A stretch of DNA of 64,000 bases from Candidatus Methanomethylicia archaeon (GTDB taxonomy: Archaea > Thermoproteota > Methanomethylicia > Culexarchaeales > Culexarchaeaceae). Position numbers and translations under genes: made by a program. The stretch is taken from NCBI GenBank assembly GCA_038727515.1, contig JAVYVS010000006.1:13088-77087 (forward strand). The letters run 5' to 3'. Below, piece after piece: positions 50,255-64,000 of the stretch. The notes below the pieces were generated by a model. That model was given only the letters and a program-made list of their open reading frames with translations, made no database searches and was not told where the DNA came from. Numbering within the stretch: the stretch's first letter is position 1; each line of letters begins with the position of its first letter.

Positions 50255-51313
50255 TTATGGGAATATTGTTTTGATTACTCTTTGAAATTCTTTGATGACA
50301 TCTTTATTGTTTGGCGTTAAATCGTCTATTATTTGTATTCCAAGAGTTTTTAATTGTTGTTTTACATTGTTTGGTATTGATTTTGTAGATGTTAGAATCA
50401 TGTGGTCAGGCTTATAATTTCGTAAGTATTGGATCACTTGTTTTTCTAAATCCGTTTGCCATTTATCGAATTCTTCATTTTTACATTCAATAATCAAATC
50501 TATTTTCTCAAGTTTGTTTGCATATGGATGTTTACCTTTACAAATAACGATATCAGGTCTAATGGCAGCTTTACCCTTTTCTGGTTTTCTAGTTAGAATA
50601 TGTTCCATTGAATTACGTTGGAACTCAAACCATATTGAGAAGCATTCATTCCCCCTTTTAGCAAAGATTGGATTAACTGGACCCTGTCTAATAAGAACAC
50701 GTGATTCTCCGATAGTATCTCTAATAGATTCTATATTTAAAGCATTGTAAGTTAACATCATAACCCACATTTGATTTATCCACTTCATAGCTACACTCAA
50801 ACTTTTTAACCTTGCTATATCATTTTGGAGACTTAAAGATGCAAAAAGACCTAATTCAGGATTTTTAAACACCCTATTGATATTAGAGGCGGATTTTAGA
50901 AAATCTATCTTAAAACCGAGTCTACTAGCATATTCTTTAACTTCACTTATCATAATCACGTAATCCCTTTTAAACTCTAAAATTCTCCTTCTCAATAACG
51001 GATCTACAACTTCTATTTCTAATTGAAAGAGTTCTTCATTTTTAACAATTCTTTTACTACCCCAGTCCAGAAATTTATCACCTTCAAAAGCATATACAAT
51101 TAACCTTCCAGAATTAGTAAAGTAAAATAGATAAATCGTTTTACCTTTAACACTATCTCTCGTAACCTCATATTTAATAAAACCGTTCTCCTTTATTTCT
51201 CTTAAAGAATATTCATTTATACGTCGAAGAATATTTCCTTCACGAACATAATAAAACGTACTTCCTTTAGCTTTACGATGTTCTTCCCATACCACTATGA
51301 TATCATTTATCAA
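50255..51313 (-). CDS. hypothetical protein with C-terminal PD-(D/E)XK nuclease motif
   Basis: RPDIVI...LIIECK...QV..Y. Confidence 0.65.
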   Translation of the reverse strand: MINDIIVVWEEHRKAKGSTFYYVREGNILRRINEYSLREIKENGFIKYEVTRDSVKGKTIYLFYFTNSGRLIVYAFEGDKFLDWGSKRIVKNEELFQLEIEVVDPLLRRRILEFKRDYVIMISEVKEYASRLGFKIDFLKSASNINRVFKNPELGLFASLSLQNDIARLKSLSVAMKWINQMWVMMLTYNALNIESIRDTIGESRVLIRQGPVNPIFAKRGNECFSIWFEFQRNSMEHILTRKPEKGKAAIRPDIVICKGKHPYANKLEKIDLIIECKNEEFDKWQTDLEKQVIQYLRNYKPDHMILTSTKSIPNNVKQQLKTLGIQIIDDLTPNNKDVIKEFQRVIKTIFP

Positions 51314-56632: not shown

Positions 56633-58006
56633 TTATTGTTTATATGTATTCTTTATTTTGATGTAGAGTGATGTGTATAAGCCTGCAGCCAATTGAATTT
56701 TAACCAATTTATCAATGTTTATTACAGTATAATTTAATTCTCTCTCCAATTTTTCAGCTCTAATTTCTAATTCGTTTTCCATGCTACTTAATACTTCACT
56801 TATAATGCTATCTCCTTCTTCAGCTTTTAACATTCTACAGAAGAGTCCCAAGGTTAATAATCTATAGAATTCTGAAACTAGATAATTATCAAATTCTTCT
56901 GCTATAGTTGCCATTCTATCCAATTCTGGTGAACTTTTAGCCCAATTTTCTTCAGCTACAATCGATTTTGGGAAAACTTCTAAATAATATTCTATCGATT
57001 CTCTAAATCTACTCTGAACTTTTAATCTATCTTTAACTTTATCAAAGGATGATTTAATTAGATTGTAAAATGATTTTGATTGTTCAATTTCATCTAGTAC
57101 AGCCTTCCTCCTATGGGTTTTTGAAGGATTTAAATCTTCTATTCTAGGATCATAATAATATGGTACTTCAGTTACCAGTTCAAATACTTGTGGATTAAAC
57201 TTTCTTGCATAATCAAAACTACTTGTACCAGTCTTTATTATTTGAGCTGGATCTCTACCAGCATATTTCTCTAGATAATCATAGTATTCTGGTGTAGAAA
57301 GCATAAGATATATTGCTGGAGCTAACGTTTTAGCCCATGGAACTTCAGGTTCACCTAAAGATAAAGGTACACCTAGATCTCTTGGAAACTTTGTATATAT
57401 TGGGTATAATAACGGTATCTTTTCAGTAACATAATAATATACTCCACCAAAACCTGCATTATGAAGACTATATATGAAATCTGGTTTCTCCATTTCAATA
57501 ATATTCATTAAAACTCTAGTTTCTGGGAGTGGTTCATTAAATTTTAAAGTTTTATATTCTATTGGGAAGGTCCATTCCACTTGTTTATTCCCAGCAGGTC
57601 TATAATAGTTTTTAGCATAATTTAGGGGTGTGAAAGGTCCTTTAAGCCATCCCTCATTAAGCTTTAATCCATCTACATCAATAACCTTCACAATATACCA
57701 TGTGAAATCAAGTTCATCCCTCAATTCACTATTCTCAGCAAGCTTCCAACTTAAATAATCTAAAACTAATGTACCTACAGGTTCATTGGGATGTGGACAT
57801 CCAAACCATAAAGCTTTATTCCTACCATCACCAATCTTTAAAAGATAAATGGAATTTCCATCTCTACTATAACCAACATTAAAAACTTTAACGATATCAG
57901 GATATTTTTCAGTCAATTTAAATGTAGATTCATTAAGTTCCTCTACATTCATAAATACACTATACTTTGGAACATGATCAATAACATCAGAAATAACATC
58001 TAACAT
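56633..58006 (-). CDS. M14 zinc carboxypeptidase family protein
   Basis: GYSRDG, HPNE, D.DG, SLHN and EVPY. Confidence 0.85.
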   Translation of the reverse strand: MLDVISDVIDHVPKYSVFMNVEELNESTFKLTEKYPDIVKVFNVGYSRDGNSIYLLKIGDGRNKALWFGCPHPNEPVGTLVLDYLSWKLAENSELRDELDFTWYIVKVIDVDGLKLNEGWLKGPFTPLNYAKNYYRPAGNKQVEWTFPIEYKTLKFNEPLPETRVLMNIIEMEKPDFIYSLHNAGFGGVYYYVTEKIPLLYPIYTKFPRDLGVPLSLGEPEVPWAKTLAPAIYLMLSTPEYYDYLEKYAGRDPAQIIKTGTSSFDYARKFNPQVFELVTEVPYYYDPRIEDLNPSKTHRRKAVLDEIEQSKSFYNLIKSSFDKVKDRLKVQSRFRESIEYYLEVFPKSIVAEENWAKSSPELDRMATIAEEFDNYLVSEFYRLLTLGLFCRMLKAEEGDSIISEVLSSMENELEIRAEKLERELNYTVINIDKLVKIQLAAGLYTSLYIKIKNTYKQ

Positions 58007-58087
58007 TGATATTATCCCCCACTTAAAGATAATTATATCAGATTTTTATTATAAATTATTGTCTTATAGATTTTAATTGTAAATTAC

Positions 58088-58325
58088 TCATGTATGATGA
58101 ATCAATCCCATACCCTTATTTTTCATCATTTCTTCAGCTAATGGATGCGTATAGAATGCAAACATTAATTATTGGATATTTAATAATCTCCATCAATTTC
58201 TCAATAGATTCATTAAATCTCCCTAATTCATGTTCATATACCCTCGATTTCACATCCCCATTACCCACTATCTTTTCATCACCCTTGAAACCTTCAACAT
58301 ATAAATTCACTTCTACTTCTTCTTT
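58088..58325 (-). pseudogene. remnant of an archaeal PD-(D/E)XK-like (paREP/DUF3782-type) protein C-terminus
   Basis: EEVEVNLYVEG...VKSRVY..., then a frameshift to FAFYTHPLAEE...; no N-terminus. Confidence 0.45.
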
Positions 58326-58582
58326 ATAAGTTTCCTAAGTTCTTCAGCTCTTTCTTTATCCACATACCCTCTAACTTCTAAATCATAAATACATTTTTCT
58401 GCATAACCACACCATGAAAGACATGTTTCAGTTGGTTCACGATGTACAATTTTACCACAATTTGGGCATTTTAATTGATTTTCATATTCAAAGAATTCTA
58501 TTTCTTCACCACAAAATGGACAACTCCTAACAATTATCTTTGGATCAATTAAACTTTTCACTCCAGGACATCTTTTCAACAT
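58313..58582 (-). CDS. small Cys-rich zinc-ribbon protein
   Basis: CPG, CPFCG, CPNCG and C..WC.YA.KC. Confidence 0.75.
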   Translation of the reverse strand: MLKRCPGVKSLIDPKIIVRSCPFCGEEIEFFEYENQLKCPNCGKIVHREPTETCLSWCGYAEKCIYDLEVRGYVDKERAEELRKLIKKK

Positions 58583-58788
58583 TCATATCTTCCTCTAATT
58601 GTAGAATATCAATCAAATATCCTTATAATGATTTCCATAAATCTTCGAGTTAACAATTCAATATACATCACCACTCTTTGAATCATCCATTGGTTAAATG
58701 ATATCATCAGTTTTATTCCAAAAGATACTTCCCAATACTAAATCTATTAAAATTAAGAAAATCCCCATTTACAAATCAATTTAACTTA

Positions 58789-59580
58789 TCACACATGTAC
58801 CTCAATAACCTCTATTTTACTTAAATCCGCAATACCCAAACCAGCTTTCTGAGCAAGTTTAAGATGTGATATTGTTAATGGATTCTTACCAAGATAGCTT
58901 GCCCCTACAGCATCTGCAGCAACTAAATCCTCAGACATAATCATTACACCAATCTCCTTAGGTCTTGCTCCAAGCTCCCCTCCCAATCCAGCAACCCTCC
59001 CATCTATAACAGCCAATCTCGGCCTAAGATAAAGATTAATATCAACTATACTTTCATCAAGCTTCCTATGAAACCTACCCTTCTTAGCAACCCTCGCCCT
59101 TCCACCTATCGTTGCACCAAGCATATTCTTTAAAGAAAGAGTCACCTTCGTTATAGAATGCTCCTTCAAAACTGGAACAGAAACTATATAAGCATTCTTA
59201 AGCGTCAATGGAAACTCAAACTCCCTCAAGAAAAACGCATTCGGATTCTTCACAACCTCAAAATCATCATTATTAAGATCAACAAGCTTAACCCCATATT
59301 TCTCCTTAAGCTTCAAATAACCAAGCTCTCGATAAGCTTCAAAAGTTTCACACCAACCAGACCCCTCAGCAACCACAACCTCAAACCCACCCCTCAAATA
59401 ATACTTAACCAAAGCTTCAACAGTTTCACAAGGAGTCGTCGTAGGAGGAGGCTCAGCAAGAATCAAATTCGGCTTAAGAACAACCCTCCCAACCGAAGGC
59501 TTAACAAAATACTCTAAACCCCTCTCAACCATACAATAAGGATCCCTACCCCTAACAACCACAACCCTCGACATAAACAC
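58789..59580 (-). CDS. DUF362 domain protein
   Basis: VLKPNL, VAEG, VPVLKEH, TLSLKN and D.VAAD. Confidence 0.87.
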   Translation of the reverse strand: MFMSRVVVVRGRDPYCMVERGLEYFVKPSVGRVVLKPNLILAEPPPTTTPCETVEALVKYYLRGGFEVVVAEGSGWCETFEAYRELGYLKLKEKYGVKLVDLNNDDFEVVKNPNAFFLREFEFPLTLKNAYIVSVPVLKEHSITKVTLSLKNMLGATIGGRARVAKKGRFHRKLDESIVDINLYLRPRLAVIDGRVAGLGGELGARPKEIGVMIMSEDLVAADAVGASYLGKNPLTISHLKLAQKAGLGIADLSKIEVIEVHV

Positions 59581-59668
59581 AAGAAAATTAACCCTAACAC
59601 AGCTTAAAAATTACGCTCAAGAAAAATCCCCTAACCACATCTTCAAACTTTAAACCAAAATTCCTTTC

Positions 59669-59756
59669 CTAACAATCCCCCTTACCGAGTTCATTTACAG
59701 TTGCCCACTTTAGAGTCTTTACAAAGCTATATCTTTCAATTCCCTTCATTGGGTTC
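59669..59756 (-). CRISPR. detached degenerate trailer repeats (repeat-spacer-repeat)
   Basis: 59733..59756 matches the repeat at 22/24; 59669..59692 matches at 16/24; separated by a spacer-length 40 nt. Confidence 0.75.
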
Positions 59757-59817
59757 ACTAGCCCTCTTATCCATTCTTCAACTTCTCAAATAACGATGAA
59801 TCATAAGATCGAAGCAC

Positions 59818-61917
59818 CTACACTGTCTTTATTCTCCAGCCGCTTATGTCGTTTGCGCATATTATCCCTGAGATTGCGGTCGCCTCTACACCGCCTCCTG
59901 GGAATGTTGAGGCGCCCACTAAATACAGCCCTTTTATTGGCGTCTTGAAGTAGGGCCTTTTAGTTTCGATTGATTGGTCAAATGCGTAAATTGCTCCCTC
60001 AGGCATAGAAGTGTATCTCTCAAATGTTTTGGGAGTCGCCGCATCTAAGACAATGATATGCTTGCTTAAGCCCGGTATTATCTTCTCCGCTTTCCGTATT
60101 AATGCCTCTGCAGCCTCCTTCTTCCTCCTCAAATACTCTTCCGTTCCCCTCGGCGGGAAGTCATGGTAATTTGCCAACGTTATAATTGTTAGACTGGCCA
60201 TGCCCCTAGGCGCTAGGGTTGGGTCAGCATTAGAATTGATAACTATTCCGTAGCCCCCATCAAGATCCTTTATGAGCGTTGGATAACCCGTTAAGTCCAT
60301 ATTGACTCCTAGGAAGACCATGAATGCTGATGGGGACATCCTCATCCCCCTAATGTAATCGGCGTATCCCCTATCCAAGTGCTCCTTACCGACGAGCTCT
60401 AGTAAGGCAGTTTTAGCGTTCGCATTAGCAACGACAACCCTACTTCTGAAAACATTACCTCCAGCAATAACTCCCCTCACTTCCCTATTCTCAACTATTA
60501 TCCTGTCAACCCTATGCTTAACCAGGACTTTCCCGCCACTTCTCTGGATGGCGTCCTTTAGGCTGTTTGCGAATTTCTGCGCCCCACCCCTCGGATAATA
60601 TCCTCCATGGACGTAGTAGGAGACACATGCCGTTAAGGCGCTCGCGGCTGAAACCTCTTCTGCCCCAGCTCCAACATAGCCTAACAGCGCGCATAGCAGC
60701 GCCTTCAAATCCTCATTCGCGAAGAACTCGTCGAGCTTCTGCCTGAAGGTCTTATTCATCCAGTCGTAAAAGTGCGGGTGCCCCCTCGGGTAATCCACTA
60801 GTCTCTTTACTCCAAAGACCTTTGCTATCAGCTCTGCTGGGAGCGGCGCACCGTAAATTTCAGCCTCTTTATAGCATTCCTCGTAGGCTCTCTTAGCATC
60901 CTCAAAGAATGAGACAATATTCTTCCTCTCATGGGGGAACATTTCTAAGAGAATCTCCATGAATTCCTCTAGATTCTCCGGCTCAATAATCCTCTCTTTG
61001 AAAATGTATCTTACCCTATTCTTCACGAATAAGTCCTCTTTATTCAATCCCAGCTCACGTAATAGGAATGTTATTGGACCCTTTTCCCATAGTCCGCTTA
61101 CGTCCTCGACGCCCGTGTTAAATGTGAAATTCTCCCTCTGGAATGATGAGCAGTATCCCCCAACCTGATAATGCTGCTCCAATACCAAGACCTTATAGCC
61201 CCTTTTCGCGAGCAGGCTGCCGCATGTTAACCCTCCAACCCCAGCGCCCACAACTATCACGTCATACTCGTCCTCGCCCCTGGAGACGCCGGGCGAAACC
61301 TGAACGCTCCAATCAAATTTTCTAAATGGCTCAACATACTTCTTAATGACAAAGTATTCTGGCGCCTTCATTGGGAAGATTATTGAGAAAATTATGCCAA
61401 AAACAATTAGAGCGTTTGAGAGCACTACCTTATACGGCATGCCAAGAAGGAAGATTAATGCGTTGACAACGAAGATGATAGTCCATGCGGCTGAGATAAC
61501 ATTGTTGATCAGCAGAAACGATTTCTCCCTCCAGTAGGTCTCAGGCCAATCCCTCTTGGCAACCTTAAACGTGAATGGAGACTTCATTGCTATTGAGGAT
61601 ACCGCCATCAATGATAATGCGAGATATCCTATAAACCCGCTATACTCGACGAAAATATTCATGCTGAATATGAAAGTGCATATGGAGGCTATGCTGAAGT
61701 AGATAGTGCTGAAGGCATCCATCAAGTAATACTCTCTTCTTCTAATCTGTGGAACCAGTATGACCATTGATACAATGAGCGCGAGGAGTACGCTAAAGCC
61801 GAAACCAAAGCCAGATAAGATCCAATAGAGGATCCATGGAATAAAGGAGAACACGATACAAACAATTCCAGGAAACCTTCTAACCGCGCCCACCCTAACC
61901 ACCAATAAACTATTCAA
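59818..61917 (-). CDS. FAD-dependent oxidoreductase (phytoene desaturase-like/COG1233) with N-terminal membrane domain
   Basis: ~6 TM helices, then YDVIVVGAGVGG, LEQH..GGY, GGYYPRGG, ATPKT..RYT, TPIKGLYLVG and PGGGV. Start may be GTG 61893. Confidence 0.88.
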   Translation of the reverse strand: MNSLLVVRVGAVRRFPGIVCIVFSFIPWILYWILSGFGFGFSVLLALIVSMVILVPQIRRREYYLMDAFSTIYFSIASICTFIFSMNIFVEYSGFIGYLALSLMAVSSIAMKSPFTFKVAKRDWPETYWREKSFLLINNVISAAWTIIFVVNALIFLLGMPYKVVLSNALIVFGIIFSIIFPMKAPEYFVIKKYVEPFRKFDWSVQVSPGVSRGEDEYDVIVVGAGVGGLTCGSLLAKRGYKVLVLEQHYQVGGYCSSFQRENFTFNTGVEDVSGLWEKGPITFLLRELGLNKEDLFVKNRVRYIFKERIIEPENLEEFMEILLEMFPHERKNIVSFFEDAKRAYEECYKEAEIYGAPLPAELIAKVFGVKRLVDYPRGHPHFYDWMNKTFRQKLDEFFANEDLKALLCALLGYVGAGAEEVSAASALTACVSYYVHGGYYPRGGAQKFANSLKDAIQRSGGKVLVKHRVDRIIVENREVRGVIAGGNVFRSRVVVANANAKTALLELVGKEHLDRGYADYIRGMRMSPSAFMVFLGVNMDLTGYPTLIKDLDGGYGIVINSNADPTLAPRGMASLTIITLANYHDFPPRGTEEYLRRKKEAAEALIRKAEKIIPGLSKHIIVLDAATPKTFERYTSMPEGAIYAFDQSIETKRPYFKTPIKGLYLVGASTFPGGGVEATAISGIICANDISGWRIKTV

Positions 61918-61940
61918 AAGTTTTTAATACTCAATTTCAC

Positions 61941-61948
61941 TATATAAA
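61941..61948 (-). promoter_or_regulatory. putative archaeal TATA box (TTTATATA) for the oxidoreductase gene
   Basis: About 24 nt upstream of TTG 61917; preceded by the purine-rich repeat end GAAAG-AAA (BRE-like). Confidence 0.55.
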
Positions 61949-61951
61949 TTT

Positions 61952-64000
61952 CTTTCAATTCCCTTTGTTGGGTTCATGTATGGGACTGCAGGGCGACTAT
62001 ATGGCTTGACAACTTTCAATTCCCTTTGTTGGGTTCAGTGCTAGGCGTGCTCTTCTGCCTATTGTGCCTTTTTCCTTTGCTTTCAATTCCCTTTGTTGGG
62101 TTCTTTACATGAGGTGATTAGACATGAAAGTTGTACTTCTTTCAATTCCCTTTGTTGGGTTCTTTGCTTGCTTTTAAGCTTTTCGGTTCACTCTGCAGCT
62201 TTCAATTCCCTTTGTTGGGTTCCCCGGTTTGCGGCAGAAACATTAGGCTTAAAGGATTCATTACTTTCAATTCCCTTTGTTGGGTTCATATAACCGTAGT
62301 GTTAAGCATTGGCGGAATAATATCTTTCAATTCCCTTTGTTGGGTTCGGATCCTCCATGAACCCACCATCAGCCCTGCTTCTTTCGGCTTTCAATTCCCT
62401 TTGTTGGGTTCAGAGATGCAGCGACATCAAAGAATCAATTAAGGACAGTTATCTTTCAATTCCCTTTGTTGGGTTCGGTATCAAAGAGCTTCAAGGTCAT
62501 CTTCGCTCCGACTCGCTCTTTCAATTCCCTTTGTTGGGTTCGTGTTTATGCATCCAAATTTGGAGAAAACACTTAGGATAGCTTTCAATTCCCTTTGTTG
62601 GGTTCTATGGAACAGTAAGATTCGGTTTAGAGGTGAATAAAGAACTTTCAATTCCCTTTGTTGGGTTCTACATATTACAATATTTTTTCTAAAAATGTTC
62701 TTATTGACTTTCAATTCCCTTTGTTGGGTTCATATGTTTTGTCTCGAAATGTGTAGGTTTCGGGTATCCATCCTTTCAATTCCCTTTGTTGGGTTCTTAA
62801 TATATAACATTATTGGAACAATAATATTCACGATCACTTTCAATTCCCTTTGTTGGGTTCATAAGTGTTAGTGCCATTCCATTAAACCAACATGTATCAA
62901 CTTTCAATTCCCTTTGTTGGGTTCATTTTCGCAGTAATATCAACACTATATGGGTTCTACATTCTTTCAATTCCCTTTGTTGGGTTCCGAGCACTTACTA
63001 GAGAGTCCGAAATGCCGTAGACAGGTACTTTCAATTCCCTTTGTTGGGTTCAGGCAAATACGTAGTCTGGACAGATGTGGATGCCCTGATCTTTCAATTC
63101 CCTTTGTTGGGTTCTGATGACAAAACCTTTTTGTCATCAAAGGTCTTCCTTCAGCTTTCAATTCCCTTTGTTGGGTTCTCCCCATTCCTCCTCTTGGCTA
63201 TCTCAAGGAAGTCATCTATCTTTCAATTCCCTTTGTTGGGTTCATAGAGGATAAAAGAAAGGGATACAATAGGATAAAAGAAAGCTTTCAATTCCCTTTG
63301 TTGGGTTCGAATATTATGGTCCGCACTCGAGATAGTCCACTACGCAGTCTTTCAATTCCCTTTGTTGGGTTCGTTGGGGGGAGCATGGAGTACACTAAAA
63401 CAGAAAAACTAAAACTTTCAATTCCCTTTGTTGGGTTCACTGCTTTCTACCCTTAACCTCGATGAGTCCAAGCTCAATTCTTTCAATTCCCTTTGTTGGG
63501 TTCAAAACGATAGAGACATGATAGCATGTTTAAACCTCTTAAAACTTTCAATTCCCTTTGTTGGGTTCTAAGCCCCTTCTTAAGCAGAAATTTAATACCA
63601 AAAAATACTTTCAATTCCCTTTGTTGGGTTCATGACGCAAACCAATACTATAGGATTAGGGAAGATCTGGACTTTCAATTCCCTTTGTTGGGTTCATACG
63701 GACATGTAGAGTTCATTGTAAACCTAAATGCTTACTTTCAATTCCCTTTGTTGGGTTCCGAGGTAATTACTGATAGCGATGAAGGAAGGAGAATACACTT
63801 TCAATTCCCTTTGTTGGGTTCTTCAATGTGAGAGCCATTATTCCGCCATTAGCTTTTAATCTTTCAATTCCCTTTGTTGGGTTCAAGTTCAAGCACAAAT
63901 ATTCATAACCCATTCTACATTACACTTTCAATTCCCTTTGTTGGGTTCCCTAAGAGCATACGTAAAAAGGAAATACGGCAGCAAAGCATTCACAAACTTT
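61952..64000 (-). CRISPR. CRISPR array, repeat GAACCCAACAAAGGGAATTGAAAG (24 bp); 32 complete repeats plus a partial one at the window edge
   Basis: Identical CTTTCAATTCCCTTTGTTGGGTTC copies from 61952 to 63948 with ~35-43 nt unique spacers. The ATTGAAAG 3' handle and degenerate repeats on the left imply minus-strand transcription, with the leader beyond 64000. Confidence 0.99.

Follow-up and report, generated by a model that had tools for sequence, protein, structure and literature searches.

CRISPR arrays are usually viewed as barriers to horizontal transfer, and the origin of the few giant spacers published was still open in 2013 (PMC3718332). The question returns with a Candidatus Methanomethylicia archaeon (GCA_038727515.1), whose 1.59-Mb assembly comprises 12 contigs at about 33% GC (guanine plus cytosine). 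The 64,000-nt stretch analysed here, the window, is the end of its contig C6 (JAVYVS010000006.1, positions 13,088 to 77,087), and in it a 2,195-nt giant spacer or pseudo-spacer (59757–61951) with one intact flavin adenine dinucleotide (FAD) oxidoreductase gene lies between two repeats of a CRISPR array. How could a whole gene come to occupy a spacer slot, and does the array act as a landing pad or expression platform for genes, as an earlier note on this sequence had supposed? Unless stated otherwise, coordinates are those of the window and the features of the array and insert lie on its minus strand.

A foreign fragment in one slot of the array

The array segment (61952–63948) holds 32 perfect 24-nt repeats and 31 spacers of 35–43 nt and ends with a 48-nt spacer truncated by the contig end, the leader lying off contig C6. 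The same repeat is found in five further arrays on contig C1 of this genome, each with a conserved leader of ~205 nt, and these leaders fix the orientation: the window array is transcribed on the minus strand, which places the insert at the old end. There, in what is a type I-A array, it takes up the second-oldest slot. The perfect repeat directly upstream (61952–61975) is matched on the other side by a repeat of 22/24 identity (59733–59756), in which CA has become TG at repeat positions 9–10, in the hairpin loop. Next come the oldest, or anchor, spacer of 40 nt (59693–59732), identical in every assembly of the locus examined, and a degenerate terminal repeat of 16/24 identity (59669–59692), the same in filled and empty strains. 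This terminal repeat is real beyond chance, because matches of its kind outside arrays have a background of 4.8e-5 per position, because it stands in an exact 64-nt register and because it is kept in all six other assemblies that reach it. A host DUF362 gene, also on the minus strand (58789–59580), adjoins the array trailer in filled and empty strains and provides a context marker outside the insert. All the coordinates in the earlier note were confirmed, including the 34 nt with the TATA-box-like TTTATATA between the perfect repeat and the open reading frame (ORF), and the 61 nt between the ORF and the downstream repeat.

The 247 ordinary spacers of the host genome measure 35–45 nt, with 40 nt the commonest length (73/247), and apart from the insert none of them is oversized; at 2,195 nt the insert lies outside the canonical type I-A range of 35–45 nt. 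Its features are those of a pseudo-spacer, given that long foreign DNA stands between two whole repeats, is followed by more spacer-repeat units and is strain-specific.

The window closes a metagenome-assembled contig, and the assembly branches at its right junction, so an artefact had to be weighed, as had the possibility that the gene is ancestral and merely adjoins an independent, decayed array. Contig C1 opens with 99 nt equal to window 61877–61975 and continues into a different spacer, so the right junction stands on both paths of the branch. Two other assemblies, GCA_038728745.1 (L141) and GCA_038880635.1 (L149), carry the insert and both junctions in identical form, and read run X1 contains exact pieces, the right junction included. 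L141 and L149 may come from one population, so misassembly is excluded but the events are not independent. Runs X2–X4 hold host-like contigs (98–99%) that end exactly at 59756 and, among the matches listed, pieces over the insert merely about 87–92% alike, a pattern that fits empty strains and is taken as a hint only.

Such empty alleles were found directly when conspecific loci were traced through the flanking DUF362 gene. Five assemblies (L164, L166, L167, L168 and L169), 98.8–99.6% identical over 7.7 kb of flank, lack the gene: in each, a perfect repeat near the end of the array leads straight into the 40-nt anchor spacer known from the window, followed by the 16/24 repeat and DUF362; L166 is a single contig of 1,584,239 bp, and the sequence of L164 begins at that perfect repeat. 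The insert is present in the window genome (G000), L141 and L149 and absent from L164 and L166–L169. In the empty strains the left repeats are the trailer of the same array, which rejects the independent decayed array and bears out the view of a foreign gene held as a giant spacer inside one array. The chance that either the artefact or the decayed array explains the locus is negligible. Hence, the insert fills one slot between two whole repeats and is absent from sister strains.

Apart from the anchor and one spacer common to L168 and L169, the spacer sets of the strains are disjoint, so the array collapses and regrows. Upstream of the insert, C1 and L141 have 39 spacers and a leader, and L149 has the same set minus one; none of these 39 is among the 31 spacers of the window. 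Two histories fit, separate regrowth of the arrays upstream of the insert in two strains, or loss from a single long array of a block of at least 32 spacers that reached as far as the insert; on both, the insert outlasted its neighbouring spacers. The window lineage is nearest to L166 (32 differences, against 79–84 for the others). One gain is the most parsimonious history, a polarity that is likely but not proven, because loss by recombination between repeats is cheap and likewise leaves a perfect repeat before the anchor. The loop change of the downstream repeat is found in filled strains only, all five empty strains having a perfect repeat there, and does not alter the predicted hairpin. 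The two changes, at 59747–59748, are C to T and A to G on the crRNA (CRISPR RNA)-sense strand, both of deamination type on one strand; that they stem from the repeat being single-stranded after integration is speculative.

The fragment and its origin

The insert has a GC fraction of 0.459, against 0.317 for window 1–58000, which upholds the earlier view that it is richer in GC than its host. At third codon positions (GC3) the gene reaches 0.546, compared with a host mean of 0.214 +/- 0.046, and tops 701 long host ORFs. The GC3 of donor-like copies, 0.51–0.58, encloses this value, so the foreign gene has not been ameliorated. GC alone fails to mark the left boundary, because the flanking DUF362 gene is itself 41% GC. 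Around that gene, window 58000–59700 has a GC skew of -0.4 to -0.5, in empty strains too, and is perhaps an older foreign segment.

Within the insert, the longest ORF (61917–59818) gives 699 amino acids from a TTG, as first described, but homologues and the NCBI call favour a start at the GTG at 61893 and hence a 691-aa protein (59818–61893). A hydrophobic N-terminal region of ~200 aa is fused to a CrtI/phytoene-desaturase/retinol-saturase-like FAD oxidoreductase domain, and the sequence predicts an intact membrane-anchored CrtI/RetSat-like enzyme. Scores stay below the curated NCBIfam cut-offs, the best being TIGR02730 (190.8 vs 586.9 bits), with TIGR02734 at 139.5 vs 238.1, which would place the protein in the CrtI superfamily outside the CrtI, CrtD and CrtH equivalogs; a role in isoprenoid or lipid redox chemistry may be supposed. 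Pairwise ratios of nonsynonymous to synonymous change against donor-like copies are 0.10–0.14, values that mostly reflect time before the transfer and do not demonstrate function in the host. Near the 3′ end of the gene (59930–59950), the codons of the conserved TPIKG motif resemble the 5′ two thirds of the repeat family, more strongly in some homologues; with no junction there, this is probably coincidence.

Assemblies with the labels Bathyarchaeia, Nitrososphaerota, Desulfurococcaceae and Methanomethylicia contain donor-like copies at 87–90% protein identity, which sit in varied neighbourhoods outside CRISPR arrays. In a tree of 29 rows, from which partial genes such as that of L053 were excluded, the cargo gene nests among Bathyarchaeia-type copies (support 100/99), and a clade of the cargo with the copies of the same-family genomes G003 and G004 is rejected (approximately unbiased test, p-AU 0.0003). 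These relationships argue that the insert derives from the DNA of another archaeon, of another archaeal class. The synonymous distance to the nearest copies is 0.43–0.46; the true donor is therefore unsampled and no donor species is named. The terminal branch of the cargo, 0.10 against up to 0.04 in sister tips, may reflect an unsampled lineage or relaxed selection. Three loci (L142, L148 and L150), from assemblies filed as Nitrososphaerota, Methanomethylicia and Desulfurococcaceae, share a near-identical gene with the same upstream flank, either a very recent mobile segment or a binning error. No viral match to the cargo gene was found that would indicate viral carriage.

The element TTTATATA (61941–61948) begins 3 nt past the repeat end and has a frequency of 4.2e-4 per position in the genome. 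Donor-like copies have a TATA-like element at a similar distance from the gene, so the promoter arrived with the fragment, and the cargo gene is probably transcribed from this imported promoter. In archaea the transcription factor B recognition element (BRE) has an A at -3 and a purine at -6 before the TATA box. At this locus it would plausibly overlap the last bases of the repeat, which would supply the -6 base, much as first suggested. Release by Cas6 of a repeat-bounded transcript from array read-through is likewise plausible.

Entry into the array

At the 3′ end of the insert, the alignment with the Bathyarchaeota locus L053 (JZ_bin_36.1), at 87% identity, runs as far as window 59757, which abuts the downstream repeat, with 54/61 nt matching after the stop codon and 17/60 beyond the junction. 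The last 18 nt of the insert (59757–59774) are the first six codons, MDKRAS, of the donor's next ORF, which continues in L053 as MDKKTS... and is severed here by the repeat. The cut that made the fragment thus fell within an adjacent gene, and the cut end abuts the first base of the repeat; a break after six codons is an arbitrary one, not the end of a cassette. The insert thus matches donor-like DNA to the last base before the repeat, and at this junction there is neither microhomology nor homology between donor and repeat.

These findings bear on any entry without Cas proteins, in which a break in the trailer would have been repaired with foreign DNA landing by chance at the repeat edges. 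The regions that arrays occupy are indeed variable, and the gene family is highly mobile, copies 85–88% alike in DNA being found in many unrelated contexts. Against such a repair event stand two whole flanking repeats, an intact anchor spacer and a junction exactly at the first base of the repeat without microhomology, and we consider it highly improbable. The insert contains no terminal inverted repeats, short target duplication, transposase or integrase, as the earlier note had already recorded for transposases and terminal repeats; with an att core also lacking, an insertion sequence (IS), a miniature inverted-repeat transposable element (MITE) and an integrative element were rejected.

With about even confidence, we favour the reading that the insert is an oversized spacer made by the type I-A adaptation machinery, with a correctly measured end away from the protospacer-adjacent motif (PAM) and an untrimmed PAM end. 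One locus of the host encodes csa3, cas7, cas5a, cas3', cas3'', cas4, cas2, cas1 and csa1, with cas6 elsewhere in the genome. The adaptation genes csa1, cas1, cas2 and cas4 are thus complete, next to a type I-A effector operon, and the host also has leader-bearing arrays.

The PAM was approached through spacers that overlap one another. Duplicated or overlapping spacers include C1:745-785 and 1131-1171, C1:87891 and 89101, and window 62348–62387 and C1:101453; one spacer is duplicated inside one array, and several pairs overlap across arrays in the same or opposite orientation, pointing to repeated sampling of the same targets. The 5′ flanks of overlapping pairs read TCC, TCC, TCA, TCG and TCT, with one uncertain TGC (5/6 TCN), and a looser pass added one GTT; the PAM is therefore probably TCN. 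No direct protospacers were found in 62 genomes of the class, where matches were mostly repeats, or in IMG/VR, and a phage collection gave chance mycobacteriophage matches only. Inside the insert, counting back from the downstream junction, a TCA (59797–59799) is found exactly ahead of the final 40 nt and a TCG ahead of the final 37; at a TC frequency of 0.056 per position in the insert, the likelihood ratio is about 5.

Untrimmed capture would give this arrangement as follows. The Csa1-Cas1-Cas2-Cas4 complex would take up DNA from a co-occurring archaeon, bind the TCA as PAM, and measure and trim the non-PAM end at 40 nt. This trimmed end would be joined to the repeat first, as in the Cas4 systems of types I-C and I-G, where integration starts with the trimmed non-PAM end and cleavage at the PAM follows (bioRxiv 10.1101/2022.05.30.494039). 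With the PAM end uncut, the whole 2.2-kb molecule would then be taken in, its far end being joined in a second reaction of Cas1 or through repair of the half-site intermediate. The normal position of the PAM end in Sulfolobales is leader-proximal (PMC4390879). Integration would most likely have taken place while the array was collapsed to its anchor spacer; later spacers would have been added upstream and lost in blocks, the insert remaining. The insert may owe part of its persistence to the two loop changes, with which the downstream repeat would recombine less readily in deletions between repeats, and possibly to selection for the enzyme, although nothing shows the arrangement to be adaptive.

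The same internal TCA would be expected if two ordinary spacers, taken from one donor molecule at sites 2.2 kb apart, had served as homology arms, so that homologous recombination or gap repair with donor DNA replaced the intervening repeat. Such bridging between two spacers would yield a PAM about 40 nt inside the 3′ end and exact junctions with no oversized Cas1 step, and would further predict a second PAM before the 5′ end of the insert. Recombination with existing spacers is one of the two routes proposed for an earlier giant spacer, SiL-E1 (PMC3718332), and repeated sampling of the same molecules by this host is evident from its overlapping spacers. Bridging requires, however, two spacers that lie in the correct order and on the correct strand, and also recombination through arms of only ~40 nt; none of the 588 spacers of the host and its sister genus matches the insert, and neither arm is kept in any empty strain. 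We judge bridging unlikely, if the most serious of the alternatives.

Several points weigh against untrimmed capture. The PAM is based on six short overlaps, two of them from the sister genus, and the internal TCA is modest evidence that bridging predicts equally. The order of integration has been established for types I-C and I-G, not for I-A, and no kb-sized integration by Cas1-Cas2 in vivo was found in the literature searched. The slot lies at the trailer and not at the leader, so that array collapse or internal integration must be assumed, and gain is not separable from repeated loss, since deletion between repeats also leaves a perfect repeat. Finally, the donor 5′ flank was not found in the L053 genome (of which the 3′ half alone is assembled), in 47 genomes of the L053 family or at ten loci of the copies 85–88% alike. 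Homology fades at ~61907–61917 in every copy, and the first 35–45 nt of the insert, before the start codon, match none of the copies compared, so the junction evidence comes from the downstream end.

The variant downstream repeat raises a further possibility, that the fragment was captured in the array of another organism, was excised as a one-repeat circle and entered by a crossover within the 3′ half that the two repeats share, so that the loop of the donor array was left downstream. The downstream repeat differs in the loop alone, the part that varies among related genomes, and its loop is one change from AATAAA, the main repeat loop of an array in the sister-genus genome G004; a crossover 3′ of position 10 would put a foreign loop downstream. 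The exact variant repeat is, however, absent from 400 Thermoproteota genomes searched, and the 47 donor-like family genomes searched have nothing within 2 mismatches of it. The host's own trailer repeats also include AATAAA-type loops, so drift or an older host state suffices, and the first capture would still need another route. Cassette exchange of this kind therefore appears improbable. Between the two routes named in the earlier note, oversized Cas1-Cas2 capture is the better supported, through the exact 3′ junction and the PAM signature, and repeat-mediated recombination is kept at a lower rank.

Known giant spacers and other loci

Giant spacers have been published before. In Sulfolobus islandicus LAL14/1, the element SiL-E1 in CRISPR_2 is a five-ORF piece of ~2 kb from a pING1-like conjugative plasmid (Jaubert et al. 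2013), for which faulty protospacer processing or recombination with spacers was proposed and the mechanism left open (PMC3718332). Both cases have ~2 kb between two repeats followed by spacer-repeat units, are strain-specific and show similarity to the source up to the repeats, in the present insert at the 3′ junction. The present insert differs in holding one whole enzyme gene and its promoter with no known mobile-element link, where SiL-E1 holds plasmid ORFs; it has a mutated downstream repeat where the SiL-E1 repeats are identical, and it lies next to the anchor, with paired empty alleles and an internal PAM. CRISPR locus F of Sulfolobus solfataricus, a leaderless inactive locus, contains an 899-bp pNOB8-like fragment (PMC4390879), again an oversized foreign fragment between two repeats of an archaeal array. 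The locus F fragment is plasmid-derived, and the host array, unlike locus F, has a leader (C1, L141) and spacer sets that differ between strains. What is new here is the whole, non-mobile enzyme cargo, the paired empty alleles, the exact junction and the PAM clue.

Canonical type I-A acquisition by Csa1-Cas1-Cas2-Cas4, as in Sulfolobus and Pyrococcus, shares with the insert a whole repeat on each side and no other target duplication, and with the host a probable TCN-type PAM and a full adaptation set. The insert departs from an ordinary type I-A spacer in being 55 times the normal length and in retaining a PAM-like triplet inside, and it would not serve as an ordinary guide. Prophages reportedly integrate into CRISPR repeats in Streptococcus pyogenes. 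IS or MITE insertions also occur in arrays (PMC4390879). In such cases, too, large foreign DNA interrupts the array, but the insert has no integrase, transposase, att core or inverted repeats. Integron cassettes are single genes between recombination-site-like repeats, co-oriented with an upstream promoter. The insert, by contrast, brings a promoter of its own together with a severed part of the adjacent gene, is not cassette-shaped and represents one event.

The idea of the array as a landing pad or expression platform is not supported by the comparison of loci. The other five strains hold ordinary spacers only, so that no different gene was found at the same repeat position, and about 140 loci with homologues of the gene gave no clean second case bracketed by the repeat. 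No oversized cargo was found in the other arrays of the window genome or in the G003 and G004 arrays examined, the maximum spacer length in the sister genus being 67 nt. A 3.4-kb gap in G003 was rejected as a cargo slot, since the arrays on its two sides differ in their repeats and the gap includes a leader. The present case is one rare event and no new system.

Weak hints come from a few layouts elsewhere. At L064:3026-6846 (also L024:2537, in Candidatus Wolframiiraptor allenii, and L065:351), an orphan local repeat of 19/24 identity stands shortly before a homologue; it is co-oriented with an array 3.8 kb off on the other side of the gene, an arrangement reached by 1/300 shuffles, and the layout may represent an older insert of several genes at the trailer of an array. 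A distance of ~280 nt separates the end of a homologue at L008:1204-1505 from a convergent CRISPR array, measured to its degenerate trailer repeat; the gene is not bracketed. On an Atribacteria contig (L035:2048-4600), a homologue is enclosed by a pair of direct repeats of ~80 nt that are nearly identical and carry hairpins, an arrangement that resembles a cassette and is unrelated to CRISPR. In runs X2 and X3, records 11 and 18 on window 59811–60283 belong to a contig of another organism (704 nt in X2), with ~470 nt of the 3′ end of the gene family, 87% alike and with frameshifting gaps. Immediately ahead of this piece are 27 letters corresponding to the 3′ part of a longer repeat of CRISPR type present in L230 and L231 (same class), and a second repeat-like stretch lies on the other side of the piece, which may be another oversized spacer, in antisense, from this gene family.

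On present evidence, a CRISPR array can occasionally serve as an entry point for a foreign gene, in this case in a hot-spring archaeon, and the cargo may be an intact, cellular-type enzyme gene of another archaeal class, beyond plasmid or virus debris. Untrimmed capture predicts that other giant spacers will have a PAM one spacer length inside their leader-distal end. If Cas1-Cas2 does complete kb-sized integrations in vivo, this bears on the fidelity of the integrase and on its uses in DNA recording and insertion. A wider proposal is that failed trimming of the PAM end lets type I-A Cas1-Cas2 write whole genes of neighbours into the array, where they would be expressed, through their own promoter or as mRNA released by Cas6, locked in by a mutated repeat and kept by selection, making arrays a gene nursery and a rare but recurrent means of homology-free gene acquisition between classes; we regard it as distinctly unlikely.

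Elsewhere in the window, a 352-aa ORF (50255–51313) without a Pfam match carries a PD-(D/E)xK-like motif close to its C terminus. It is not called at that place in L166 and is present in L164 and L167–L169, which makes it a strain-variable candidate nuclease.

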